Of a stretch of 64,000 bases of DNA, positions 4,032 to 45,974 are shown one piece after another. How positions within the stretch are numbered: the stretch's first letter is position 1; each line of letters starts with the position of its first letter. The translations under genes and the position numbers were made by a program. Source of the stretch: Clostridia bacterium (GTDB taxonomy: Bacteria; Bacillota; Clostridia; UMGS1883; UMGS1540); contig JAZSIR010000006.1 in NCBI GenBank assembly GCA_045533905.1, positions 1 through 64,000 of the forward strand, written 5' to 3'. Below the pieces are notes generated by a model. It was not told the origin of the DNA. It did not search any database and saw only the letters and a program-made list of their open reading frames with translations.

Positions 4032-5048
4032 TTACGCTCTTTGGGCGCGTATCTTCTCATCTGTCTGCATTTTAAGGAATTCTTTTTTGCGCTCCCATTC
4101 TGTCTCAGCCGCCTCGGCTTTGAGGCGCTCCTCTTCAATCGCGGCCATAAGCTTTTCCATAAACTGCACCTGGTCCTTTGTAACCGTACCCTCGGGAACG
4201 CCGAGGACCGCAGCGGCGTTTTTATCCACAACGCCCATCGCCATAACCTTGTCCAGTTCATTCCGGAAAGCGGCATCTGCGCGGTCATCTGCCGCGCTTT
4301 GTGCATCCTGCCCGAGCTGTTTCTGCTGCAGGGCCAGTCCCTCGCCGGTCTGGTATTCTGAAAATGCATTTTTGGCAAGGCTTCCCAAAAGCGAAACCGT
4401 ATCCATCTTCGCGGCGCGGTCGGCCTCAAAGCGCTCGCGCGCAAGTGCCTCATACTGCGGCACAAGCGCCTGCGCGGCTCTCTGGCGCATAATCTCGGCT
4501 GTGGAGCCGCCCAAAAGCCCGCGGGAATTCGCGGACTGCGCGGCCGCGAGCATCGCCTCTTCCTGCGCCGCGTGAAGCGCCGTATCCTTTTTCGGGTCAT
4601 ACGAAAAGCGCATCTGTGTAAGTTCCGACAAGACAGAGTCGGTTTTCTTTTCGTAGGGATTTTCGTATTTCTTCGGTACAAAGCTTTCTGCAAACGATTT
4701 TTCCATCCAGTAATCGTCGCCCACCTTTATAAGGCGGCTGTCATTTTTATTCAGAAGCTGGCCGTTCACAATCGGGGCATCGGCCTCCTTGTCGTAGCCG
4801 ACCGTGGCACCTTTTGCCGCGAGCGTATTCCGAAGCGGCGTGTAGCCGCGCGGGCCGCCGGCACCGCTTTTGGCAAGTGCCGTGCGGATGGTGTCGCCGC
4901 TTGCGCGGAAGCCGCCGTCCGTTTTCCCGAAGGCGGCCGTATCGAGCGCGTGCACATTCCCTTTTCCGTCAATGACGGAAAGAGTATTGCCGTCGGAAAC
5001 CGTTTCATACCCTCTTTCGGAAAGCCAGTTTTCTACAGTATACTCCAT
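4032..5048 (-). CDS. putative internal virion/ejection (pilot)-like protein
   Basis: YENPY...FSYDPKKD...AAAQSANSRGLLGGS Ala/Gln-rich helical region of the kind seen in Firmicutes podophage internal proteins; last gene after the nozzle; start MEYTVEN. Confidence 0.5.
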   Translation of the reverse strand: MEYTVENWLSERGYETVSDGNTLSVIDGKGNVHALDTAAFGKTDGGFRASGDTIRTALAKSGAGGPRGYTPLRNTLAAKGATVGYDKEADAPIVNGQLLNKNDSRLIKVGDDYWMEKSFAESFVPKKYENPYEKKTDSVLSELTQMRFSYDPKKDTALHAAQEEAMLAAAQSANSRGLLGGSTAEIMRQRAAQALVPQYEALARERFEADRAAKMDTVSLLGSLAKNAFSEYQTGEGLALQQKQLGQDAQSAADDRADAAFRNELDKVMAMGVVDKNAAAVLGVPEGTVTKDQVQFMEKLMAAIEEERLKAEAAETEWERKKEFLKMQTDEKIRAQRA

Positions 5049-5087
5049 CGTTTCTCCTTTCCGCCGCCCATTTGGGCGGCACATCTA

Positions 5088-6470
5088 TTAGGCATAGCTT
5101 CGTTTTCTTGCGCGGAGGTCAAACTCCACGCTCTCCACGCGCACATACCCTTCACCCGAAAGGCGCACGCGCATCTGCGGCGCATCCTGCATCTGCGGTG
5201 GAATGTCAATGGCCACAACGCCGCTTTTCTCCACCGTACCCACCGTGCGCCAGCCCTCACCGCCGCTCCACGGACTTACGGCCACCGAAAAGTACGCGCC
5301 TTCCGAAACCTCTGCCCGCACATAGATGCGGTGCCAGTTCTGAAAGAGCGTTTCGCCGAAGCGGTACGGCGCGGAAACGCGCATCCAGCGCACCTTCTCG
5401 TCTCCCTCGCCAAAGGTGTAGACGGTGCCGTCGGAGGCGGCGGCATACGTTTTTCCCGAAAGGGCGGCAAATCCCACAAGCGGCACGGCATCCTCTACAT
5501 ACCACTCGCCCACGCGCGTATCATAGGCGAGGATGCGGGTTGTGTCGTCCTTCTGGGGCAGGGCGAGGTAATAGCGCACGCCGTCGGTGCCGGCGGCAAC
5601 CTCTTCCATTCTTTCCATATCCATTTCCTCTATATATTTCTGAATGGGTAGGCTTACGGTTTTCGGCAGTGCGCCGCCTGTATAGCGGTACAAGCCGCCG
5701 CGCCCCAGAAAGTATAAGGCGCCGCCGATTTCCACGATGCTTGCGCACGCGGTGCAGCCGATATCGCGGCTTAAACAGAGGAGCGAGAAGTTTATGGGGT
5801 CGGTGCCATACAGCTCAAACATCGCATTTTCCTTAAAATAAAGGATATGCCCGCCATAGGCGAAAAGCCCCGTGCCCGCGGCCTCCTTCGTCGTTTCGCA
5901 CATTTCCGCGCCGGCGTTTTCCGGGGCGGACCAGTCATCCACATTCTGAAGCGCCGAGTACCTGAGGAACTTATCCTTGTCGGACGCCGCGAAAAGATGC
6001 CACGCGTGCACCGCTAAAAACTTCGCATTTTCAGGTTTGCCGCGGGTGCCGACCTGCGTAATCTTCTCCCCATCGTACTTTTTTGCGCCGCTTCCGTCGG
6101 CAAAGATGGCGTAGTCCATAAAATCTGCCGCATAGATGCGCCCCGCCTCCGTGTCGGAAACGGCGCCGCAGTTTTTCCAGGCGCCCGCTTCCAGTATATA
6201 TAAATTTTTCGAAACCACAGCCGCGAGCGTGGTGCCGAAAACGGTTCCGAAATACCGCACCGTGCCCGAAGGCAGGGGCGGCACGGCCGTAGCACTGCGC
6301 GAAGGACGTGGCGCAAGCTGCGGCCAGACGCCGGAATGGAGATTTTCCATCTCCGCCGCCATCCCGTCCGGGATTTCTGCCGGCGGAAGGCCCGTGTGCA
6401 CACCGCCACCGATTTTCGTTTCGATGTGCCGCACCTTTCCTCCCATCTCATTCCACATTCCTTTTTTCAT
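5088..6470 (-). CDS. putative tail nozzle / DNA-stabilisation protein (P22 gp10 / T7 gp12-like beta-propeller)
   Basis: 460 aa beta-rich; motifs GCTACASIVEIGGALYFLG, DGVRYYLALP, ILAYDTRVGEW; follows the adaptor. Confidence 0.65.
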   Translation of the reverse strand: MKKGMWNEMGGKVRHIETKIGGGVHTGLPPAEIPDGMAAEMENLHSGVWPQLAPRPSRSATAVPPLPSGTVRYFGTVFGTTLAAVVSKNLYILEAGAWKNCGAVSDTEAGRIYAADFMDYAIFADGSGAKKYDGEKITQVGTRGKPENAKFLAVHAWHLFAASDKDKFLRYSALQNVDDWSAPENAGAEMCETTKEAAGTGLFAYGGHILYFKENAMFELYGTDPINFSLLCLSRDIGCTACASIVEIGGALYFLGRGGLYRYTGGALPKTVSLPIQKYIEEMDMERMEEVAAGTDGVRYYLALPQKDDTTRILAYDTRVGEWYVEDAVPLVGFAALSGKTYAAASDGTVYTFGEGDEKVRWMRVSAPYRFGETLFQNWHRIYVRAEVSEGAYFSVAVSPWSGGEGWRTVGTVEKSGVVAIDIPPQMQDAPQMRVRLSGEGYVRVESVEFDLRARKRSYA

Positions 6471-6480
6471 CTGCCGTCAC

Positions 6481-7098
6481 CTACCTTCCGCATCGCTTCT
6501 TGCCGATGATTTTGGTGGTCGGATATTTTCCGTCCTTTTCATAGCGTTCCTGCCGTGCGCGGGCAAGAAGAAGATTGTAGTTTAACTTGTAGTTATTGGC
6601 AAGCGCCACATCCTCGCGCGCCTCGGCCACCGTGCACAAAAGCGCGCACTTGATAAGCTCGATATAATCTTCGTCAAGCCGTATCTCCTGCGCGGCGAAA
6701 TCCACGCCTTCGCGCTCGGCCTCCTCGGGCGAAAGAAGCCGCGCGGGGCGAAGGAAATACCAGACGGTGATTTCCGCATCGTGCGGGGGCGGCGGGCAGA
6801 GGCCGATAAAGCCCTCCATCGCGCGGTACCACATCCCCCGCCTTGCGGCGTCGCCGATTCTTCCGGCTTCGCGCTTTTTTCCGTTTACCAAAACGGCGGA
6901 GATAAGGTCAGGACGGATATCCCCCGGCAGCGGCAGGAGCTTTTCGCCGCCGCGGGCGGAGAAGGTATACCCCTCGCGCAGGGCGAGCACCTTATAAAGC
7001 TCTCGTACGGCCGTGTCGAGCCAGACCAAAAGCTCCGCATCCGTGAATGCATTCGGCATTCTTGTGCGCACATCCTTCAGAATTTCGCCTACGGTCAT
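6481..7098 (-). CDS. putative head-tail adaptor protein
   Basis: MTVGEILKDVR...FTDAELLVWLD N-terminus and helical C-terminus typical of gp4/gp11-like adaptors; ATGA overlap with the amidase. Confidence 0.65.
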   Translation of the reverse strand: MTVGEILKDVRTRMPNAFTDAELLVWLDTAVRELYKVLALREGYTFSARGGEKLLPLPGDIRPDLISAVLVNGKKREAGRIGDAARRGMWYRAMEGFIGLCPPPPHDAEITVWYFLRPARLLSPEEAEREGVDFAAQEIRLDEDYIELIKCALLCTVAEAREDVALANNYKLNYNLLLARARQERYEKDGKYPTTKIIGKKRCGR

Positions 7099-7712
7099 AC
7101 GCCTCGCCCCCTTACATAGCGGAGGCATTTGCGGGCGAGCCAGTAGGCATTTTCATCGTCCTCCAGCTTCTGCATCCAAAGCGTTGCATCCGTCAGGATT
7201 CCGCGCTCGTAAAGCTCCCAGACGATATCGTTCACACTTGTGAGTTCTTCCACTTCTGCCACTCTCCTTTTCAGTTCCTTCCAGAGCGCCCAGTCGTTTT
7301 CCGCAAGGACCGCGGGGCACAGTTTTCGCGAGGCATCATAGTGACGCACCACATTTTCGATGCCTGTTTCCGCTTTGAGCTTTTTGATAAGGTCCACGGT
7401 GTAATCGAGCGTTCGTTCGAGGTTTCCGTCTTCGTTTATGCAGATTTCGATGCCGATGGAATTGGCGTTCGTGATGCCGTAACGCCCCTTGCCGTCGCCG
7501 CAGTGCCACGTGTAGTAGCGCTCGTAATCATTGATCTGCATAGCGCCGCCGTCATCGACCACAAAGTCGGCACTCTGGCCGACATTTCCCGCGTTCCAGT
7601 ACGAAAAATGGGCAGCAGCATTTGCGCCTTTTTTCGGATTCCCCGTACTGTGCACGACGATGTACCGCGGCTTTTCTGTTCGTTTTGTGATATTGTGCTG
7701 TAACTGTTTCAT
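7095..7712 (-). CDS. N-acetylmuramoyl-L-alanine amidase (Amidase_2 endolysin)
   Basis: YIVVHST, WHCGDG, NANSIGIEIC, VVRHYDASRKLCP Zn-amidase motifs. Confidence 0.92.
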   Translation of the reverse strand: MKQLQHNITKRTEKPRYIVVHSTGNPKKGANAAAHFSYWNAGNVGQSADFVVDDGGAMQINDYERYYTWHCGDGKGRYGITNANSIGIEICINEDGNLERTLDYTVDLIKKLKAETGIENVVRHYDASRKLCPAVLAENDWALWKELKRRVAEVEELTSVNDIVWELYERGILTDATLWMQKLEDDENAYWLARKCLRYVRGRGV

Positions 7713-7725
7713 TTTCTCTCCTTAT

Positions 7726-7781
7726 AAAAAACGGGTGCGGCCGCGGCGGCGGGCGTTTCCGCCGCGGTGCTCCCCATTTTT
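7726..7781 (-). terminator. intrinsic terminator-like hairpin between holin and amidase
   Basis: CCGCGGCGG/CCGCCGCGG stem with extended flanks followed by T6 on the minus strand. Confidence 0.6.
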
Positions 7782-7961
7782 TCAGAACCCTTCCTTGTCC
7801 GTGGGGTTGTTAAGTACCCCGAACCCTACCAAAACCGCTAAAAGCAGCTCGGTAAAGGTGTCAAACTGCGGGATTTCAAAGCCGCACCACGCCTTCATCA
7901 CAAAGGCGAAAAGGGCGGCACAGGAAACCCATAGGACCGGGCTTCGCCATCTCTCAGACAT
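7782..7961 (-). CDS. phage holin
   Basis: 59 aa, RWRSPVLW...VGFGVLNNPT, two TM helices, upstream of the endolysin. Confidence 0.8.
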   Translation of the reverse strand: MSERWRSPVLWVSCAALFAFVMKAWCGFEIPQFDTFTELLLAVLVGFGVLNNPTDKEGF

Positions 7962-8178
7962 AATGCATCCCCTCCTTGATTTCGTCAATGCGGTGGTGCG
8001 CACTCTTTACGCTCTCCTCCACAGAGACCATACGGAGCACAAGGCTGTTATACTTCTCCACCTTGCGCTCGAGCTGCAAAAGGCGATAATTCGTAAGGCG
8101 GTTTGCGGCCAGTATGCCGCCAAGCGTGCCTACGAGTGTGCCGAGAAAGGAAAGCGCGGCCACGATATATTCGTACAT
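7954..8178 (-). CDS. holin-associated small membrane protein
   Basis: N-terminal TM then LTNYRLLQLERKVEKYN...KSAHHRID coiled coil, a pattern common in clostridial lysis cassettes. Confidence 0.7.
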   Translation of the reverse strand: MYEYIVAALSFLGTLVGTLGGILAANRLTNYRLLQLERKVEKYNSLVLRMVSVEESVKSAHHRIDEIKEGMHYV

Positions 8179-8192
8179 TTCTTTCCCTCCTT

Positions 8193-9809
8193 CTACAAAA
8201 CGGTGTATACACGGTTCACCCGGTATACGTGCCGTTTTATTGTGCCATCTGCGGAAAGACGGAAGGTGCTGACTGCCCCGTCTGCAGCGGATACGGCTAC
8301 CTGCGGCATCTCGGAAACCACGGTCGCAATGCTGCCGGTTCCCTCTTTATAGACCTCGCCACTATCGCCGGTGCCGCAGCGAAGGCAAGTGCCGCTGCCG
8401 TCCGTTTTGCGGGTTAACAGGTGCACACGGCCGTCTTTATCTGCCGCAAGCCCCAAAAAACGCTCTGTCTGTCCGCCGCCGGCGAAAAGAACTCTTTTAT
8501 ATACGCCGCTTTCCGTGCGGTAGCGGTACACCTGCGCGAACTCGTGGAACACATACATATCCTCGCCTTCCACCGCAATGCCCTGCGCCACGTGCCCTTC
8601 GCTCTTTGTCGTGGGAAGAGGGCGATACCTCCCTGTGATTTCACCTTCGGGCGAAAGGCGAAGGACCGCGTGTGCCGCCTCGCTGCTTTCCACGGGCGCA
8701 ATGTAGATGTTGCCGCCTTCGTCGGTGGCGGCCACGGGGAAGCGTCTGTCATACACCGTGCCCGCATAGCTTGCCGCGTAACTTGTAAGGGGCTCGGAAT
8801 CGATGGAAAAACTCCAGTCGATCGGCGGGTCCATATACCCCGTGTCCTTATAGGCATCCACGTACATTCTGTCGTGCGAAGCGGAAAAATACACCGCCGT
8901 AAAAATGGAGCGGCCGCCTTCGTCGGTGCCGGGCGTTTCTGCCCAGCGCTTATAGAAAATGTGGCGAAGGTCAATCCCGTCGCTCTTTGTAAGCGCTACC
9001 TGCCGGTACAGACTCGGGCTTCCGCTGCCGCCGAGCGTCGTCTCCCAGATCTCGAGCTTGCCGCCTTCAACGCGCCCGAAATACGCCTTACCGCCTGCTA
9101 TCGTGTGGCAGGTGGTGTTCTCGGGTGCGACCACAGTCTGAAAGCCTGCGCTTTCCGCTATTTTATACGCGAGCGTATAACGACCTGCTCGGTTTTCATA
9201 CGCGCACGCCGTCACATAGCCCGCCATATCGCCGCCGGCGCTTATAAACGCCGCGGCATCGGAAGCGATCGTCTCCTCACCGCCGTCGCGGTATTCTTTT
9301 CCCGCCTCCATAAGGCGAAGCGGCTCGGTTTTAAGAAGCATTGCACCGGTATCCACCGTGAGAGCCCCTTCTTCCGTCAGCTGAATCATCCCGAGCTTGT
9401 TTTTTTCCGCATCGGTGAAGCTGTTCTCTGAAAGGCCCATGCCTTCCTCTTTATCCACCTTCCCCGAAATTTTCGCGCGCACCGCCTCGGAAAGGTGTGC
9501 CTCGCCGACGGCGGCGGGGGTAATCGCCTCGCTACAAACGGCTTTTTTCGCAATTTTCTCTGCCGTGACAGATGCAGGCGCAAGCTTTTCCGCCGTCACG
9601 CTCCCCGCAGGGTGGTCGAGTACCGCCGCATGTTTGTGGGAACGGAAGTCAGCGTCCTTCGCCTGCAAATCATTCGTAACGCGGGAGAGACCTACGTCTT
9701 CCTTCGTTACGGCGTGCGGATTTTGCGTGTCCGCCATATGGTCCTGCATAGAAGGCATATTTTCAAGAAACTGCCGAACGCCTTCATTTAGTAATTCTGA
9801 AACACGCAT
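8193..9809 (-). CDS. tail/head fibre-like protein with C-terminal beta-rich domain
   Basis: NPHAVTKEDVGL, SVTAEKLA/SVTAEKIA repeats and KVDKEEGMGLSENSFTDAEKNKL fibre motifs. Confidence 0.7.
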   Translation of the reverse strand: MRVSELLNEGVRQFLENMPSMQDHMADTQNPHAVTKEDVGLSRVTNDLQAKDADFRSHKHAAVLDHPAGSVTAEKLAPASVTAEKIAKKAVCSEAITPAAVGEAHLSEAVRAKISGKVDKEEGMGLSENSFTDAEKNKLGMIQLTEEGALTVDTGAMLLKTEPLRLMEAGKEYRDGGEETIASDAAAFISAGGDMAGYVTACAYENRAGRYTLAYKIAESAGFQTVVAPENTTCHTIAGGKAYFGRVEGGKLEIWETTLGGSGSPSLYRQVALTKSDGIDLRHIFYKRWAETPGTDEGGRSIFTAVYFSASHDRMYVDAYKDTGYMDPPIDWSFSIDSEPLTSYAASYAGTVYDRRFPVAATDEGGNIYIAPVESSEAAHAVLRLSPEGEITGRYRPLPTTKSEGHVAQGIAVEGEDMYVFHEFAQVYRYRTESGVYKRVLFAGGGQTERFLGLAADKDGRVHLLTRKTDGSGTCLRCGTGDSGEVYKEGTGSIATVVSEMPQVAVSAADGAVSTFRLSADGTIKRHVYRVNRVYTVL

Positions 9810-9830
9810 GCGTCACTTCCTCCCTGTCTC

Positions 9831-10748
9831 TTAGTCGCGGCCTCTGGAGCCGACAAGGCCGCGCCAGTCTACAAAGCCGGTGGCAAAACGGCAATAGCCG
9901 TAGAAACGGTAATCCATTTTGTTTTCCATCTTTTCGTTGTCGAAAATCGGCTTTTCGCGCCAGAGGAACATAAGGTTGTCCATCGAGCTATCCTGCACAA
10001 ACCACGGTTTGAACGCTTCAAAATCCCCGCCGGTGTCTGCAAGATAATCCCAGACCACAAGGTCAAGGTGTGGCAGGGTGTTCTTGTCGTTATTGGCGGT
10101 GCCTGCCTGTAAGGTAGAGCCGAGGAGTGCGCGGGCGGTAAATTCCCAGTCAGGGTGCACTACAAGGCGGTCTGCATGGGCGGCAATGAGTACGCCTGCT
10201 TCATCCTTCTGCATACGCATCTTGGTAAGCGCTTCCTTAAGCGTTGCATCGGAAAGGCTGCCTTCGACCTCATTGTCACAAGATCCACCCTTCGCAAGAG
10301 TGTGGTTGCTAGAAAAAATGGCCGGGTAATCCATGCTTGTGCCAAGGCCTCTGAAAATAACCTGGGCCGCTTCTCTCTCTTCCGTGGCAGCGAGGCTTCG
10401 GCCGAGCTTTGTGGCACTGCCGCCACGGCCTGCGCCGCGCATTACGTTGTAAAGGTCGTCCTGCACAAGCTCCCAGGTCACTTCGTAGGCCTTGTCAAAA
10501 CGCTTTGCCGCGAGTGTTTTGGTATCTACCTGTACCATTTCATCGGTGCGGAATTCATTTCCTTCCAAGTTTTCTTCCCAAAGGCCGAAGCCGCCGAGAT
10601 GCGGGAAGGATTCTTCCTTTGCCTGCATGGTGTCTACCTTAAAAATCTTGGTATACTGCTTTTCCTTCGAATTATAGTTATCGAAGAACACCTTGCGGTG
10701 AATCGGGGTTAAAAGAGACGCAAAGTTATCTCTGTTCATTGTTGCCAT
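9831..10748 (-). CDS. major capsid protein (HK97-fold, Mu gpT-like)
   Basis: 305 aa; EVTWELVQDDLY, IFSSNH, DRLVVHP, RFATGFVDWRG motifs; follows the scaffold. Confidence 0.85.
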   Translation of the reverse strand: MATMNRDNFASLLTPIHRKVFFDNYNSKEKQYTKIFKVDTMQAKEESFPHLGGFGLWEENLEGNEFRTDEMVQVDTKTLAAKRFDKAYEVTWELVQDDLYNVMRGAGRGGSATKLGRSLAATEEREAAQVIFRGLGTSMDYPAIFSSNHTLAKGGSCDNEVEGSLSDATLKEALTKMRMQKDEAGVLIAAHADRLVVHPDWEFTARALLGSTLQAGTANNDKNTLPHLDLVVWDYLADTGGDFEAFKPWFVQDSSMDNLMFLWREKPIFDNEKMENKMDYRFYGYCRFATGFVDWRGLVGSRGRD

Positions 10749-10773
10749 ATTGTTTCTTCCTTTCTTTTATAGG

Positions 10774-11496
10774 TTACTGCGCGTATTTGAAGCGCGCATA
10801 TTCTGTGGGCGTAAGGCCTGCTCTTTTAGCTGCCCACTTTTCCGCCTCGGAAAGGCGCACCGAGCCGCTTTCTTCTCTCGCATCGCCGCCGGAAAGTGCA
10901 GGAATACGGCGTGCCTTCTTCTCCGAAAGCAGCACTTCCTCCGCCATTTGTTCTTTCATACGGCGGGCGCGTTCTTCCGCGAATAGGGCATTGTATGCTT
11001 CCTTTGCGGAAAGGCCTGTACGAAGGACGAGCATTTCAATCGCATCGCGATACGTGTCCACATCCTCGTAAAGCGGGTCCTTTCGCATTTCGGCATACGC
11101 CGCTTCACGCGCGGCGGTTCTTTCGGCTGCGCGGAGGGCGCGCACTTTTTCCTGCTGCGCTAAAAAGAGCGCGGCCGCCTCGCCGGAAAGACCGTGCACG
11201 CGCACAAGCTTTTCTTCCTCTGCGCGGTCAATCATTTCGGAAAGCGCAGCGAGGCTTTCTGCCCCCATATCGTCCATCAGCCGCTCGATAATCTTTCGCA
11301 TTTCGTCTTTTTCGGCATCGGGCGCGGGCGCCTTTTCCTTTTCTTTTTCCTCTTCTTTTGCGGCTTCTTCGGCCCCGGGCTCCTCAATCAGAAGAAGCAA
11401 TTCTTCCGCGGCCGCATTTCGTGCCAGCTGCGAAGCCGGCGAGAGGCCTACGCGGTTTTCTGTCTTTCCCGCGGACTTCTTTTTTGTTTTTGCCAT
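10774..11496 (-). CDS. capsid scaffolding protein
   Basis: Charged helical protein ending LSEAEKWAAKRAGLTPTEYARFK (helix-turn-helix capsid-binding tail), directly upstream of the capsid gene. Confidence 0.7.
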   Translation of the reverse strand: MAKTKKKSAGKTENRVGLSPASQLARNAAAEELLLLIEEPGAEEAAKEEEKEKEKAPAPDAEKDEMRKIIERLMDDMGAESLAALSEMIDRAEEEKLVRVHGLSGEAAALFLAQQEKVRALRAAERTAAREAAYAEMRKDPLYEDVDTYRDAIEMLVLRTGLSAKEAYNALFAEERARRMKEQMAEEVLLSEKKARRIPALSGGDAREESGSVRLSEAEKWAAKRAGLTPTEYARFKYAQ

Positions 11497-11522
11497 ACTA
11501 CGAGCTCCTTTCTAAAAACTCT

Positions 11523-11756
11523 TTACCTGTAAAGCTGTTTTTCCGCATATTCTCCCACCGTCACCGGCATCGGGCCGCGATGGCCGCAATACGGGCAATG
11601 GCCGATTTTATTCTCGGCCCAGCCGCGGTCACGAAGGGCCGCACGTTCGCAGCGGGTACAAACGGGGTTGTCCTTCAGTTTTTCAATGTCGATGCTCTGC
11701 AGATACGCGTGGCGGCGCATTCGCCTTGCCACGTGCTGCGGTAAATAAATCTGCAT
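11523..11756 (-). CDS. small zinc-ribbon protein
   Basis: CTRC...CPYCGH, own RBS, between portal and scaffold. Confidence 0.65.
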   Translation of the reverse strand: MQIYLPQHVARRMRRHAYLQSIDIEKLKDNPVCTRCERAALRDRGWAENKIGHCPYCGHRGPMPVTVGEYAEKQLYR

Positions 11757-11779
11757 ATCCCTCTCTCCTTTTTTCTTGC

Positions 11780-13405
11780 CTATCTTTTTACATTGTCATC
11801 CTTTGTAAGGCCTTCGGCTATGGCGCTTTCGACCTCGGTCCCCGCCGCGACGGGTGCCGCAGCAGGCGAAGTGCCGAGGGGAATTCCGAGATAGTCGCCT
11901 AAAAAGCTTCGTACTTCCTCAGCCGAAACCAGGCCCTTCGCGTACAAATCACTCATCATCTGATACGCCGCGGCGCGGTTTGCCGGCAGGCCTGCGCCCA
12001 CCGTTACCACAAGGTCAAACGCGGCCGATTTTGTACCGCCTTCTTTTTTCGGAATCGCAGAAAGCTCGCGGCCGGAGAAGAAAATGAATTCGTCACCACC
12101 GCCGGATACGCGGATGGCGATTTTCTCCGTCCAGTACGCTCTGACCATTTCGAGGCAATAGGCAAATACCTCAGAAAGTGTTTCCTGCAAAAGAAGCTTT
12201 TTGTGCTGGATGGACATCTGCCCACCCTGCTGCAACACCGTAGCCTCTGCCGCCGTGGTCACGCCGGCCTGCTTTGCACCTATCATCTGGTCGGAAAAAC
12301 GTGTGATGCGCTGACTCTCGTAGCGAAGTGCCGTGTCCCTTCTCTGTAAAATGTAAGAAGGAAGAGGCGGCGCTTCGAGGTTTCGGACGGCCGCAACACT
12401 CGTGGTGGGAATGTTAAGGCCTGCTTCGTTCGTCATCGCATCCAAATCGATACCGCTTCCCGTTTCGATAAGACGCTGGGGGTTGCCCGTGAGGCGGGCG
12501 TTGATCCGGATCTGGTCGTCCAGGTCGTTGATGAGGTCCTGCACAGGTATCAGAAGCTCTACATCGCCCTTGCCCCAGATGGACCCTTCGCGATAATAAA
12601 GGGGTGTGAAAAAATACGGATACCTTCCGCCCGGATAGAAATTCTCCTCGCCGCGCTCGAAGCTGTCGGATAAAATCAGGCCGCACCCTGTCATTTCCAC
12701 AAGACGGAGCTTTCCTTTCTCCTTCGTCCAAACGAGCATATGGAGATACGTGTCATCCCCGCCCTCGTCGCCTTCGAACTGCGGTCGGTACCCCGGCATA
12801 ATGGCATCTGCCACCGCATCGCCGTACATCTCGCGTGCCCAGTGCACAGTTTTGGTGAGCGTTTCGATAATGAAAGCCGCCTCTTCAATGCGGTAGACGT
12901 CCGTAATCCCGGGATCTACGAAAATCTGCCGCGGATTGCAGGCTTCAATGATGGGAAGCCCCGCCCCATCCAAGGCGTTCGGATCAAACGAAACGCGGAA
13001 GATGCCCGTGCCGTACTTTTCGCGGCGCCGCTCGTGCAAGTCGAGCTTTCGCACAAGGCGGTTTTTATCCTTGATGAACTCGAGCACCTTCTGCACATTC
13101 CGCGCAAAGGGCGCATCGTCGGGCGTGACGGGCATCGGCATAATTCCGATGCTCTGCTCAAGGAGAAGGGAAACCTGCCCCTCGATGTTGGCGTGCACGA
13201 TATTCGTCGAGCTTCCCGGGTCATTCTCCGTTTCCGGAAGGTTGACGTCCCCCTCCCAGTACGCTTCGTATAAAGCGAAGCGCTCGGGAAGCCCGCGCCG
13301 TTCCTTGTCCTGCCACGCGTCCATATAGTACTGCCTGTACTTCGCCGCCGTTTTCTGCGCTTCGTCGCGCATAAGCGCATTCCTCAGTTTCTTTTTGCTT
13401 TGCAT
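11780..13405 (-). CDS. phage portal protein (P22-like)
   Basis: 541 aa from ATG after GGAGGTG; TNIVHANIEGQV, KYGTGIFRV, IFVDP, WGKGDVELLIPVQDLIN, GVTTAAE motifs. Confidence 0.85.
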   Translation of the reverse strand: MQSKKKLRNALMRDEAQKTAAKYRQYYMDAWQDKERRGLPERFALYEAYWEGDVNLPETENDPGSSTNIVHANIEGQVSLLLEQSIGIMPMPVTPDDAPFARNVQKVLEFIKDKNRLVRKLDLHERRREKYGTGIFRVSFDPNALDGAGLPIIEACNPRQIFVDPGITDVYRIEEAAFIIETLTKTVHWAREMYGDAVADAIMPGYRPQFEGDEGGDDTYLHMLVWTKEKGKLRLVEMTGCGLILSDSFERGEENFYPGGRYPYFFTPLYYREGSIWGKGDVELLIPVQDLINDLDDQIRINARLTGNPQRLIETGSGIDLDAMTNEAGLNIPTTSVAAVRNLEAPPLPSYILQRRDTALRYESQRITRFSDQMIGAKQAGVTTAAEATVLQQGGQMSIQHKKLLLQETLSEVFAYCLEMVRAYWTEKIAIRVSGGGDEFIFFSGRELSAIPKKEGGTKSAAFDLVVTVGAGLPANRAAAYQMMSDLYAKGLVSAEEVRSFLGDYLGIPLGTSPAAAPVAAGTEVESAIAEGLTKDDNVKR

Positions 13406-13734
13406 TGTATCACCTCCTTCCCGCTTTCGCACGGTAAGTATACCGCAAGAAGAAGGCAAACACCACGGCATCTTTTTCGCACCGCACTGGGAGAAAAAAA
13501 GGCAACAAAAAAAGGCGCAATTTATGCAAGGTTATAATTGCCTACGCCAAGATATGTATTTTGATACGCTTCGGCTATGCTGCGCCTTTCTGCAGCTTCC
13601 GCCTATGGGGAGAAATACAACAAAAAAGGCTCCCTTATGTAAAGGGAGCTATCAACCGAAGCGAACCTCGGGGATATTTTAAAATTCTTATGTTAGATTT
13701 CTTTTCTCTCGGTGCACATGCACCCGAGATGCAC

Positions 13735-14079
13735 ATGGAGTAAAGGCGGGAAGCGCACAAACTACCCTTCCGCACTTTCCAAAACGGGCGCTTTTCGAAG
13801 CGTGCCGCCGATTCGAAGGAAGACGGCGCTCGTCGAGCGGCGGCTTGCCTGAGATAGTCGAGGAAGACTTTTCGAAGAAAAGGCTTGCCGAGCGGAAAGG
13901 CGGTAAAAGGCGGATGCCCTAAATGGGGCCCCCGAAAAGCCTTGGCTTTTTGGGGAAGAGGAGAAGCAAGGAAGCAAAGCGGAATATTTCGCCGATAAGG
14001 CGAAAATGGAGTGAGCGTACTTTGCTTCGACGAGAGCGCGCCCTGCGGGGGTCGTAGGGGTGCCGCATAGCACCCCTAC
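13735..14079 (+). repeat. dispersed structured element family R3 (with nested R2)
   Basis: Near-identical core GCGGCTTGCCTGAGATAGTCGAGGAAGACTTTTCGAAGAAAAGGCTTGCCGAGCGG also at 20888-21097 and 37777-38009; ends in the GTAGGGGTG..CACCCCTAC hairpin. Confidence 0.85.
13925..14032. repeat. ~108 bp element family R2
   Basis: GGGGCCCCCGAAAAGC..GCTTTTTGGGG...CGACG; copies at 29391, 39434 and 59512 (inverted). Confidence 0.85.
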
Positions 14080-14405
14080 AAAAAGAAACCTTTAACAAAA
14101 AACTTCCGTCTTTATATAGTCTGCACCGCTTTGCAAAAAGGCACAGCGATATAAATTTCTTCAAAATATATATCCCAACGGGTGCGATATGTCCGTTCAA
14201 CACGAGAAGGAAAACAGCAAAAGGCGAAAGCGGGCGCTTTTGCTATCGCGGAAAAAGATGCAAGAAGCGTAAAACTGCCGAAGGCAATACCACTCGGCAA
14301 AAGCCGAACCCCACTTGCCGGAAGGGCGAATATAGCTGCGAAGAATACCCCTCTGAAAAAGGAAAAGCCGCGAAAGGAAATCCCTTTCGCGGCGTACTCT
14401 TTTTC

Positions 14406-43462: not shown

Positions 43463-44233
43463 TTATGCATTTTCTTCCCTCTCCAGTATTTCAAGTGCTA
43501 AATCCCTATAGCTTTCCGCGCCGCGGCTTGACGGGTCATACACAATCACCGGCTGCCCGAAGCCAGGGGCCTCGGAAAGGCGCACGTTGCGCGGAATAAT
43601 CGTGCGGTACACCTTTTCGGGGAAAAACTTCTTTACTTCATCCACAACCTGAATGGCGAGATTCGTGCGCGAGGAGAACATCGTCATCAGAACCCCTTCA
43701 ATCGTAATATCGGGATTCAGAATTTTCTTTACGCGCTTAATCGTCGCCGTCAGCTGGCTGAGGCCTTCGAGGGCATAATACTCGCACTGAATCGGCATTA
43801 AAACCGAGCCGCACGCGGCCAGAGCGTTGAGTGTGATAAGACCGAGAGACGGCGGACAGTCGAGAAAAATATACTCGTAGTCCTCTTTGACAGGCTCGAG
43901 CGCCTCGCGCAGGCGATACTCACGCGCCATCACGCTTACAAGCTCAATTTCCGCGCCGGAAAGCGCAATGCTGGACGGGCAGACCGAAAGATTCGGAAAT
44001 GCCGTCTTTACAACAATATCTTCCATTGCGGCGGAGCGGACGAGAATATCATAAATGGAATTTTCAATCGTGCGGTTATCAATCCCGAGGCCGCTTGTGG
44101 CATTCCCCTGCGGGTCCATATCCACAAGGAGCACGCGCTTGCCCGTTTCTGCAAGGCAGGCTGCGAGATTCACGGCCGTAGTTGTCTTGCCGACGCCGCC
44201 CTTCTGATTTGCAATCGCAATAATTTTTGCCAT
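43463..44233 (-). CDS. parA: ParA/Soj ATPase
   Basis: [32 protein letters not shown]. Confidence 0.96.
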
Positions 44234-44280
44234 GGGAAATTCCTTCCTTTTCAGTTTGTGTTTCCATTATAGCACAGAAA

Positions 44281-44335
44281 TGTTTCACGTGAAACAAAAA
44301 ATGCAAAAAAAATAAAAAATGTTTCACGTGAAACA
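44281..44335. promoter_or_regulatory. two perfect parS sites
   Basis: TGTTTCACGTGAAACA at 44281-44296 and 44320-44335. Confidence 0.95.
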
Positions 44336-44489
44336 ATTTGCCGCTTTCCGGTGCCCATTTTTTGCCCTTGTTTTTCGCCTCTTTTTCCGGTAGAATTTTC
44401 TTAAAAATTCCTCGCATTTTTTTCTTTTTTTTCTTGCAAAAAAAGGTTTTTTTTGGTATACTATAAAAGGATAGGTACGGTGGCTCTTT

Positions 44490-44600
44490 TTCCCGCTTTT
44501 CCACACGGTTTCCCGTGTTTTTTCACTTTTCCGCCGAGTTATCCACATAAAACAAGCTATTTTTGCCCGTTTTTATTAAGTTTTCCACATCCTCTGTCAG
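44490..44600. other. oriC part 1: DnaA boxes upstream of dnaA
   Basis: TTATCCACA at 44539; TTTTCCACA at 44497 and 44581. Confidence 0.8.
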
Positions 44601-44660
44601 TAGTTTTCCTACTTTTCCGCGGGCATTTTACCATTATTTTTTGAAAGGATTTTACATAGT

Positions 44661-45974
44661 ATGAACGGCGAACTTTTGAATATCTGGAATCACGTTTTAC
44701 CGCTTATTGAGGAAGAGGTTACACCCGTGGGGTACAAGACCTGGATTTTATCCATTTCCCCCCAATCTTTCGAAAACGGTTTTCTGCACGTTTCGGTTCC
44801 GAACGATGTAAATAAGAATATGGTGGACCACCGCTACAAGGAGCTTATTCAGAACGCTTTCTATGAAATCTGCGGTAACCGCTGCACGCTTGTGGTGCAT
44901 ATCGGCACCGAAGAAGCCAAGGAAGAAAAGAAGGAAGCGGGCGCGGTGCGAAATCTCGGTATGCCGCTAAATCCAAAATATACGTTTGACAGCTTCGTTG
45001 TAGGTGGCTCGAACCGCTTTGCGCACGCGGCATCCCTTGCCGTTGCGGAAACACCTGCCAGAACCTATAATCCGCTCTTTTTATACGGCGGCGTAGGGCT
45101 TGGCAAAACGCATCTTCTCCACGCCATCGGCAATTTCATTATTGAAAATAACCACGATATGAAGGTTATGTACATCTCCTCCGAAACCTTCACAAACGAG
45201 CTTATCAATTCCATTAAGGATTCTAAAAATGATGAGTTCCGCGAAAAATACCGTTCTGTGGATGTTTTGATGGTGGATGACATACAATTCATCGCCGGTA
45301 AAAAGGTTACGGAAGAAGAGTTTTTTCATACGTTTAACACACTCTACGATGCGAATAAGCAGATTATTATCACGAGTGACCGTCCGCCAAAAGAAATTAA
45401 AACGCTTGAGGAACGGCTTCGCTCCCGCTTTGAATGGGGTATAATTGGCGACCTTTATGCACCGGACTATGAAACGCGCTTTGCAATTTTAAGAAAAAAA
45501 GCACAGCTTGAAAATATTGCCATCGGCGATGAAATCCTCGAAGTGATTGCCGATAAAATCACCTCGAACATCCGCGAGCTGGAAGGCGTTTTCAACCGCG
45601 TAATTGCCTACCGCGGCCTTATCAACAGCGAAATCACGATTGATGTGGCGCTCGATGCGATGAAGAGCTATCAGGCAACCGGAAAACCGCGTGCCACGGC
45701 AGACGAAATCGTCGATGCCTGCAGCGCTTTCTACCACGTGAAAAAAGAAGATATTATGAGCTCGAAAAAGCCAAACAATATCGCACGCGCACGGCAGGTT
45801 GCGATGTATTTGATGCGCGAAATTCTCGGTATGCCGAACCTCAAAATCGCCAAGTATTTTGATAAGCATCATACCACGATTTCCCACGGAATTGAAGTAG
45901 TGGAAAAAATGCTTCTTGAGGATCCTTCCTTCCAGATGGAAATCTCCACACTGAAGAAGGATATCACGGAGTAG
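44661..45974 (+). CDS. dnaA: replication initiator DnaA
   Basis: YNPLFLYGGVGLGKTHL, DDIQF, RLRSRF, NIRELEG. Confidence 0.98.
   Translation: MNGELLNIWNHVLPLIEEEVTPVGYKTWILSISPQSFENGFLHVSVPNDVNKNMVDHRYKELIQNAFYEICGNRCTLVVHIGTEEAKEEKKEAGAVRNLGMPLNPKYTFDSFVVGGSNRFAHAASLAVAETPARTYNPLFLYGGVGLGKTHLLHAIGNFIIENNHDMKVMYISSETFTNELINSIKDSKNDEFREKYRSVDVLMVDDIQFIAGKKVTEEEFFHTFNTLYDANKQIIITSDRPPKEIKTLEERLRSRFEWGIIGDLYAPDYETRFAILRKKAQLENIAIGDEILEVIADKITSNIRELEGVFNRVIAYRGLINSEITIDVALDAMKSYQATGKPRATADEIVDACSAFYHVKKEDIMSSKKPNNIARARQVAMYLMREILGMPNLKIAKYFDKHHTTISHGIEVVEKMLLEDPSFQMEISTLKKDITE

Follow-up and report, generated by a model that had tools for sequence, protein, structure and literature searches.

What an uninterrupted run of eleven phage genes does in the chromosome of a Clostridia bacterium, and what switches it on, is the question raised by a 64,000-nt stretch of DNA (contig JAZSIR010000006.1 of assembly GCA_045533905.1, positions 1 to 64,000), which is called the window below. 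An earlier note had described the run, which extends from 13405 down to 4032, as a minimal, intact particle system maintained by the host and resembling a gene transfer agent (GTA). The reading preferred here, to which a probability of about 0.6 was assigned, is that a short-tailed phage operon inherited with the host and scattered over four loci builds GTA-like particles containing host DNA, and that the same activator switches on the host dnaA operon. The particle system adds another example to a recently reported type; the new element is a phage late promoter before a host dnaA gene, of which no report was found in the open-licence literature. The window's own genome (1.57 Mb, 95.5% complete) is labelled G000 and its contigs Cn; the window's own genus is labelled g1, and other genera are g2, g3, g5 and so on.

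Late promoters and their predicted activator

The pattern TGC-N8-TGC-N25-TAnnnT, frequently with a third box, was found in 23/23 promoters of g1 and g3, comprising those of 12 portal genes and 11 genes resembling that of the small terminase subunit (terS). A matrix was trained on 19 promoters, with G000 and its sister excluded, and its top three sites in G000 were those of the portal gene (33.0), dnaA (28.4) and terS (27.2), followed by an intragenic site at 22.5; three shuffled-genome controls gave 0, 0, and 1 sites above 22. With a matrix built from portal promoters only, dnaA ranked third and terS fell outside the top 12, and with one built from terS promoters only, dnaA ranked second and the portal gene sixth. 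The regular expression used in the motif search tolerated spacings of 24-26 with one extra point for 25, and cleaner tests of the motif were provided by a strict pattern of fixed spacing and by phage contigs (spacing 25 or 26). The strict pattern, composed after the dnaA match was known, matched exactly three times in each of G000 and G003 (portal, terS, and dnaA); its 1-8 matches per genome in other genera were regarded as chance.

The copy pointing into dnaA was present in 9/9 g1 genomes at 299-324 nt upstream of the gene (309 nt in G000), its box and -10 columns being invariant across the genus and its spacers variable. Among the 31 dnaA regions examined it was found in 0/22 outside g1, including all three of g3, with scores of 5.5 or less. 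The late promoter copy is preceded by two 16-bp palindromes (44281..44335, between parA and dnaA), which we take from their consensus to be parS-like, and is followed by a sigma-A promoter and then dnaA. Within positions 43463-44661 of the window, parA-parB is directly divergent from dnaA and no rpmH-rnpA open reading frame (ORF) was seen. G000:C18:53201-55255 holds another gyrA-like gene (32%, ParC-like), and most relatives have a counterpart.

The activator was located through a Sigma70_r4_2 search; searches of G000 with the ArpU (TIGR01637) and DUF1492 families returned nothing above cut-off. It occurs in 12/41 genomes, which are exactly the motif-bearing genomes of g1 and g3. Nine loci with relatives of the activator were recovered from IMG/VR, one of which is a motif-free locus of host type. 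The others are eight phage contigs with activators 26-40% identical, and in 8/8 of these the best plus-strand match of the matrix (scores 11.2-32.6) was located downstream of the activator gene, at a distance of no more than about 55 nt in 5/8, and ahead of terminase genes, recognised by eye, in 7/8. This independent test ties the motif to this activator family and agrees with the Ltr model (PMC3753634). As in Ltr activators of phages, the protein has a C-terminal helix-turn-helix (HTH) domain like sigma70-r4, and the direct repeats lie upstream of terS and, in the phages, after the activator gene. The phrog_36 profile, which matches the activator, also matches a DUF1492 activator beside the cluster in a g10 genome. 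A different promoter repeat, with GTCA boxes about 10 nt apart, precedes terS in the genera with DUF1492 activators (L066, L067, L068, L070, and L075).

The activator operon opens with a small Cys4 ORF; a sigma-A promoter precedes this ORF and is followed by an 18-bp palindrome, a putative operator that is conserved in 12/12 genomes and occurs once in G000. The Cys4 ORF (69 aa, approximately G000:C2:28355-28564), which was seen in activator loci of g1 and g3, is possibly an anti-repressor or co-factor. A cI-like repressor was found in 11/12 genomes of g1 and g3, the operator half-site was present in 7/11 repressor promoters, and operator and repressor likely complete the switch. An HTH-S24 gene at C2:20860 was dropped as a repressor candidate because it had no match to the Ala-Gly site motifs searched. 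LexA was not detected above cut-off in G000, nor was a perfect LexA-type box in its intergenic DNA. An ImmR-like repressor, mostly together with an ImmA-like protease, lies beside a DUF1492-like activator in g2, g6, g8, g9, and g10, and g5 has an HTH repressor with a DUF1492-like activator. Between repressor and activator of G009 (L167:3501-3974), an ORF was recognised by eye as resembling the N-terminus of a phage replication initiator, and a similar ORF occurs in G013 (L414).

Particle genes, packaging motor, and inheritance

All eleven ORFs are open and on the minus strand, with inter-gene gaps of -8 to 69 nt and purine-rich ribosome-binding sites, in agreement with the earlier description. 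The portal, capsid, amidase, and adaptor matched Pfam families above curated cut-offs; the scaffold and zinc-finger proteins had no family match at E<0.01. The 77-aa Cys4 protein is 49-96% identical among relatives, with dN/dS of 0.013-0.058 in the five closest pairs, and the tail fibre, the fastest-evolving gene of the cluster, retains 28-73% identity over nearly its full length in g1 and g3. Structure prediction, which had been proposed as a check of each ORF, was applied to the nozzle and the last protein: the nozzle, for which no significant match in PDB was found by sequence, gave a model with a predicted local distance difference test score (pLDDT) of 90.8 that resembles podophage nozzles such as P22 gp10 (8eap, E 2.5e-16, TM 0.71), while the model of the last protein, consisting of small beta domains and long C-terminal helices, had no significant match in PDB. 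The last ORF matched uncharacterised podovirus proteins (BFVD, E 3e-4) and the final protein of the operon of FpGTA, a clostridial GTA discussed below (hidden Markov model (HMM), E 1.5e-7); since its only matches are of this kind and none is in PDB, it is labelled a putative ejection protein.

The host-like composition reported earlier was borne out by codon use, with percentiles of 16-90 for 8 cluster genes against 1-26 for 16/17 genes of two prophages in G000; the cluster has a GC content of 56.4% and the window one of 52.7%. The eleven ORFs include neither an integrase nor a replication gene, no integrase family was detected among 137 selected proteins taken mostly from cluster flanks, and no att-like pair was seen at the cluster ends among the 20 largest direct-repeat families listed in a repeat scan. 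The hallmarks by which an intact or decaying prophage would be recognised (integrase, att sites, early region, and pseudogenes at the edges) were not found here. As expected of a GTA, phage-derived head, packaging, and tail genes are intact and replication or integration genes of its own are absent; in relatives the nearby exceptions were a RepA_N gene in the flank of G020 and an IS200 transposase in that of G003. In the stretch of about 0.9 kb that separates the portal promoter from a conserved 156-aa membrane gene (13500-14400 of the window), no gene was called; this membrane gene flanks the cluster in 9/9 g1 genomes in variable orientation.

The cassette is not self-contained: no terminase lies within the eleven-gene cluster, which the earlier note did not point out, and terminase, activator, and repressor are located at three other loci. 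Two genes for the large terminase subunit (TerL) were found in G000, one in a prophage-like region on C3 and the other at C4:3067-4392, between ORFs of 59 and 206 aa and adjoining housekeeping genes; a search with the Terminase_6C family gave nothing above cut-off. Orthologues of the C4 gene were present in 20/21 same-family genomes, and the single genome without it is missing the housekeeping neighbour too, pointing to a gap in the assembly. In g1 and g3, 11 genomes have TerL split off next to a nifU-like gene; in four other genera (g2, g5, g6, and g10), 6 contiguous loci have it within the cluster, following the capsid gene, and the C4 gene is assigned to the cluster's system on the strength of the latter arrangement. 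Its Walker A and Walker B motifs are intact, as is the first Asp of the nuclease site. The conserved 59-aa ORF lies directly 5' of TerL in 11 genomes and is a candidate TerS by its position and a weak lead, and five other genera have a gp3-type TerS of 114-128 aa heading the cluster. The prophage-like region on C3 (L102, G000:C3:99700-119622) is part of a podophage-like prophage at a contig end and encodes a MuF_C protein of 3247 aa; between this region and the cluster the amidases share 59% and the holins 73% identity, suggesting that lysis genes may have been exchanged between the two. A further prophage at G000:C20:197-17061, cut by the contig start, carries integrase-like, cI-like, and capsid-like genes recognised by eye.

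The portal was present in 21/21 genomes of the same family (10 genera including the window's own) and was matched weakly (about 22%) in 6/19 genomes from two other families. When 185,579 species genomes were scanned for the capsid, 24 loci were obtained, mostly titled uncultured Clostridia and several from ruminant gut; one, titled Acetivibrio, was 51% identical, and the remaining 23 were 61-73% identical, which is the range of the family's own copies. Six loci were found in IMG/VR, four of them of the same cluster type, and the closest cultured phage was Bacillus phage PK1 (portal 26%, capsid 36%). A quick IQ-TREE analysis with SH-aLRT (approximate likelihood-ratio test) support only recovered 8/10 host splits for the 12 genomes of g1 and g3. 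Across the cluster genes, dN/dS in the five closest pairs was 0.013-0.25, with dS often near saturation, compared with 0.028-0.059 for gyrA, gyrB, and rpoB. Host maintenance, the central claim of the earlier note, thus stands on family-wide presence, low dN/dS, a tree largely congruent with the host in two genera, and the absence of a close phage; vertical inheritance with purifying selection holds for g1 and g3 and does not extend to the deeper branches. Domestication is accordingly well supported within g1 and g3, whereas support for one event shared by the whole family is weaker. Second copies in G013:C32 and G020:C74, which bear a polyvalent protein of 2.3-2.5 thousand aa after the ejection-like gene, look like the phage form. 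The capsid of G000 (9831-10748) is 73% identical to that of its sister, while the portal is 89% identical, and a capsid loop has changed.

Table. Location of the predicted components of the particle system and of the dnaA region (window coordinates unless a contig is given)
Feature	Position	Strand	Basis or remark
Ltr-type phage late promoter of the cluster, TGC-N8-TGC-N25-TAnnnT	13437..13481	-	
Portal, 541 aa	11780..13405	-	SU10_portal PF23899 1.5e-12; phrog_156 2e-25
Cys4 zinc-ribbon-like protein, 77 aa, highly conserved	11523..11756	-	Sequence
Likely scaffold, 240 aa	10774..11496	-	Suggested by gene order in relatives, where it lies between portal and capsid
Major capsid protein, 305 aa	9831..10748	-	Phage_capsid_4 PF25209 4e-18; Mu-like gpT 4e-10
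Tail fibre / receptor-binding protein, 538 aa	8193..9809	-	N-terminal PHROG fibre matches 3e-6
Holin-like small membrane protein, 74 aa	7954..8178	-	phrog_1863 2e-15; one hydrophobic stretch
Second holin, 59 aa	7782..7961	-	phrog_297 3e-4
Hairpin between holin and amidase	7726..7782	.	Long version in some relatives only
Amidase endolysin, 205 aa	7095..7712	-	Amidase_2 PF01510 2e-18
Head-tail adaptor, 205 aa	6481..7098	-	SU10_adaptor PF24175 1.2e-13
Tail nozzle, P22 gp10-like, 460 aa	5088..6470	-	Predicted structure; 26% to FpGTA-operon nozzle
Likely ejection protein, 338 aa	4032..5048	-	Putative role; model pLDDT 85
Three-box copy of the late promoter, pointing into dnaA	44339..44396	+	
Ordinary sigma-A-type dnaA promoter	44434..44462	+	DnaA boxes after it at 44497, 44539, 44581
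dnaA, first gene of dnaA-dnaN-recF-gyrB-gyrA	44661..45974	+	Predicted third activator target
Terminase operon (59-aa TerS-like, TerL, 206-aa tail gene)	G000:C4:2437-4573		
Lone Ltr-type activator, 187 aa, C-terminal sigma70-r4 HTH	G000:C2:27780-28343		PF08281 2e-7; phrog_36 4e-11
cI-like repressor	C4:44125-44745		Ala-Gly site and Ser/Lys residues in place

Proposed mechanism and its alternatives

In the proposed mechanism, a damage-type (RecA-type) signal would cleave the cI-like repressor, and the activator would then be produced and would fire the late promoters of the cluster, the terminase operon, and dnaA. The terminase would fill heads with host DNA, in an unselective manner because the putative small subunit would be too short for a DNA-reading domain, and the holin and amidase would lyse the producer cell. 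Extra transcription of dnaA-dnaN would most likely add rounds of initiation, supplying DNA for packaging. The more specific proposal of a GTA with a captured initiator, in which the late activator drives dnaA-dnaN at oriC, cells over-initiate, and particles load origin-proximal DNA, is held tentatively and at somewhat below even odds; the cluster itself lies in the origin-proximal region. A producer would likely both raise particles and change the copying of its own chromosome. The system is filed as GTA-like from its genes alone, with particles, cargo, and transfer predicted for this family.

Several observations weigh against this interpretation. The three g3 genomes possess the cluster and activator without the dnaA copy, so the dnaA link is dispensable for the system, and the nine g1 genomes form one clade, so the gain of the dnaA promoter counts as one event. 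The proposed pairing of repressor and operator is drawn from co-occurrence and from the half-site in 7/11 promoters. At position level, the last nuclease ligand is Glu rather than Asp in all 12 family TerLs aligned, and the 59-aa ORF had no significant family match, its atlas lead to Terminase_2 being just 0.87. The congruence with the host expected from the earlier note held largely within two genera and failed beyond them: one host split (G003, G008, G005, G007) was contradicted and one other was unresolved, deeper branches of the cluster tree disagree with the host, and the two prophage-like copies nest within the family clade, so that a single domestication for the whole family is less well supported. 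These copies give dN/dS of 0.055-0.31, and low dN/dS therefore cannot tell tamed genes from live phage. Possible breaks were noted in the portal of G008, which is split over two frames, and in the TerL match of G016 and the nozzle match of G020, each of which holds a stop. The 73% identity of the G000 capsid to that of its sister corresponds to a dN of 0.20, against about 0.03 in four other close pairs, and may reflect either a period of accelerated change or replacement of the gene in this lineage. The cluster also lacks the 2.3-2.5-thousand-aa protein of the prophage-like copies, which could hamper delivery of DNA.

The dnaA promoter would most simply raise DnaA and DnaN, but it could instead block initiation. 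Under the same regulon, read-through across the DnaA boxes or an excess of DnaA might stall the origin while the chromosome is cut and packaged. The promoter lies between the two parS-like sites and three DnaA boxes, which its transcript would cross, and the bipartite origin of B. subtilis has boxes clustered on either side of dnaA (PMC5295017). The same transcript would also run in the sense direction into dnaA-dnaN-recF, however, a g2 genome keeps the phage replication-initiator-like ORF (recognised by eye) beside its activator, and amplification accompanies the Bartonella GTA (PMC2697382); a shut-off of initiation was therefore judged unlikely. Slightly less weight was given to the particles being PBSX-like weapons or decoys which may hold host DNA but kill or distract without transferring genes. 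A fast-evolving fibre, the lysis genes, the damage-type switch, and loss of the giant ejected protein would suit such a role, which was left open by the authors of the FpGTA study (PMC12946183), but no contractile tail, tube, or toxin gene is present among the eleven ORFs, the portal and TerL are under purifying selection, and the dnaA link would be of no obvious use to a weapon.

Two further readings were considered very improbable. The nesting of prophage-like copies in the clade, the disagreement of deep branches with the host tree, and the three broken or doubtful genes among relatives would fit elements that do nothing for the host, either the remnant of a defective prophage or several related prophages of recent origin; this is difficult to reconcile with presence in 21/21 relatives whose synonymous distances are about 1 or higher, with genes over four loci that still share promoter and operator, with codon use resembling that of the host, and with the conserved copy of the promoter before dnaA. 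Position suggested a device linked to sporulation and run together with spoIIIA by the mother cell, since the cluster lies tail-to-tail with spoIIIAH, as the earlier note had observed for the spoIIIA operon. The cluster is 31-41 kb from dnaA in G000, and the distance is 31-61 kb in 4/4 genomes with both on one contig. The spoIIIA placement is not conserved beyond part of one genus: spoIIIAH adjoins the cluster only in G000 and G002, lies about 9 kb off in G006, and is found at the opposite end in G008, and the neighbours differ in the remaining genomes. A SPOCS/LysM coat gene is found upstream of the portal in 3/3 g3 genomes. Against this, cluster and spoIIIA are on opposite strands, upstream of the cluster it is a phage late promoter that has been conserved, and the activator is preceded by a promoter of sigma-A type; neither a conserved spo link nor a sporulation-sigma promoter was found, sigma E/F/G/K consensus being judged by eye only, and the sporulation link is not supported.

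The preferred reading, a tamed phage operon whose activator also drives dnaA, bears on the open question of whether GTA producers amplify the DNA they package, and by what means. If true, a genus-wide phage late promoter at the host dnaA would integrate a tamed virus with the cell cycle in a new way. The route from motif to activator also picks up scattered GTA loci overlooked by prophage finders.

Comparison with known systems

RcGTA is siphovirus-like, and a short-tailed GTA in Clostridia had been put forward in the earlier note as an architecture that differs from it. A system of this sort has already been published, FpGTA of Faecalibacterium prausnitzii, a podovirus-like GTA whose particles contain about 9 kb of DNA (PMC12946183). 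The comparison was performed with the ten-gene operon of F. prausnitzii ATCC 27768, taken as FpGTA I by strain and gene order. Both systems are podovirus-like, occur in gut Clostridia, comprise more than one operon, have a short TerS, putative in the present one, and lack replication genes, and the giant ejected protein is absent from FpGTA I as well (PMC12946183). Homology was detected for TerL (36%), portal (23%), nozzle (26%), the 206-aa tail gene (39% over 41 aa), and, by HMM, the last gene, whereas capsid, adaptor, and scaffold have no detectable similarity and gene order differs; fibre and lysis genes are split off in FpGTA, the terminase here (PMC12946183). Neither an orthologous N4-gp56-type capsid nor the order TerS-TerL-portal-Prp/scaffold-capsid, which would mark the FpGTA lineage, was found, and TerL falls in a different clade (FastTree). 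Given these differences in TerL clade, capsid, adaptor, scaffold, and gene order, the system represents a domestication separate from FpGTA. Sections 9, 10, and 26 and the consulted part of supplement 4 of PMC12946183 describe no regulator or dnaA link for FpGTA. An FpGTA-like cluster was observed in 6/6 genomes of the sister-family genus g12 (G023, G024, G026, G037, G039, and G040; L077-L084), with TerL 64%, portal 48%, and capsid 47% identical to the Faecalibacterium operon and a divergent cI-like repressor adjoining it.

In RcGTA, gp1 is a TerS that seems to be missing its N-terminal DNA-binding domain, a deficiency put forward to explain random packaging (PMC6854486), and the 59-aa protein, assigned as TerS by position and a weak lead, would be similarly cut down. 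PBSX of Bacillus subtilis is likewise phage-derived and from a Gram-positive host, and packages host DNA as is predicted here, but it acts as a tailocin (PMC12946183), and contractile tail genes are absent from the cluster. The Ltr late activators of Gram-positive phages comprise RinA, ArpU, LtrA/sigma70-r4, and LtrB/DUF1492 (PMC3753634); the present activator shares with them its small size, the C-terminal sigma70-r4-like HTH, direct repeats before terS, and probable control by a repressor, and differs in that activator, repressor, and targets are on separate loci and that host dnaA is a predicted target. The Bartonella GTA is accompanied by run-off replication from a putatively phage-derived origin (PMC2697382). 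If the amplification reading is right, both systems are coupled to extra replication, which in the present system would proceed from the host's own initiator gene, predicted to be under the control of a phage promoter.

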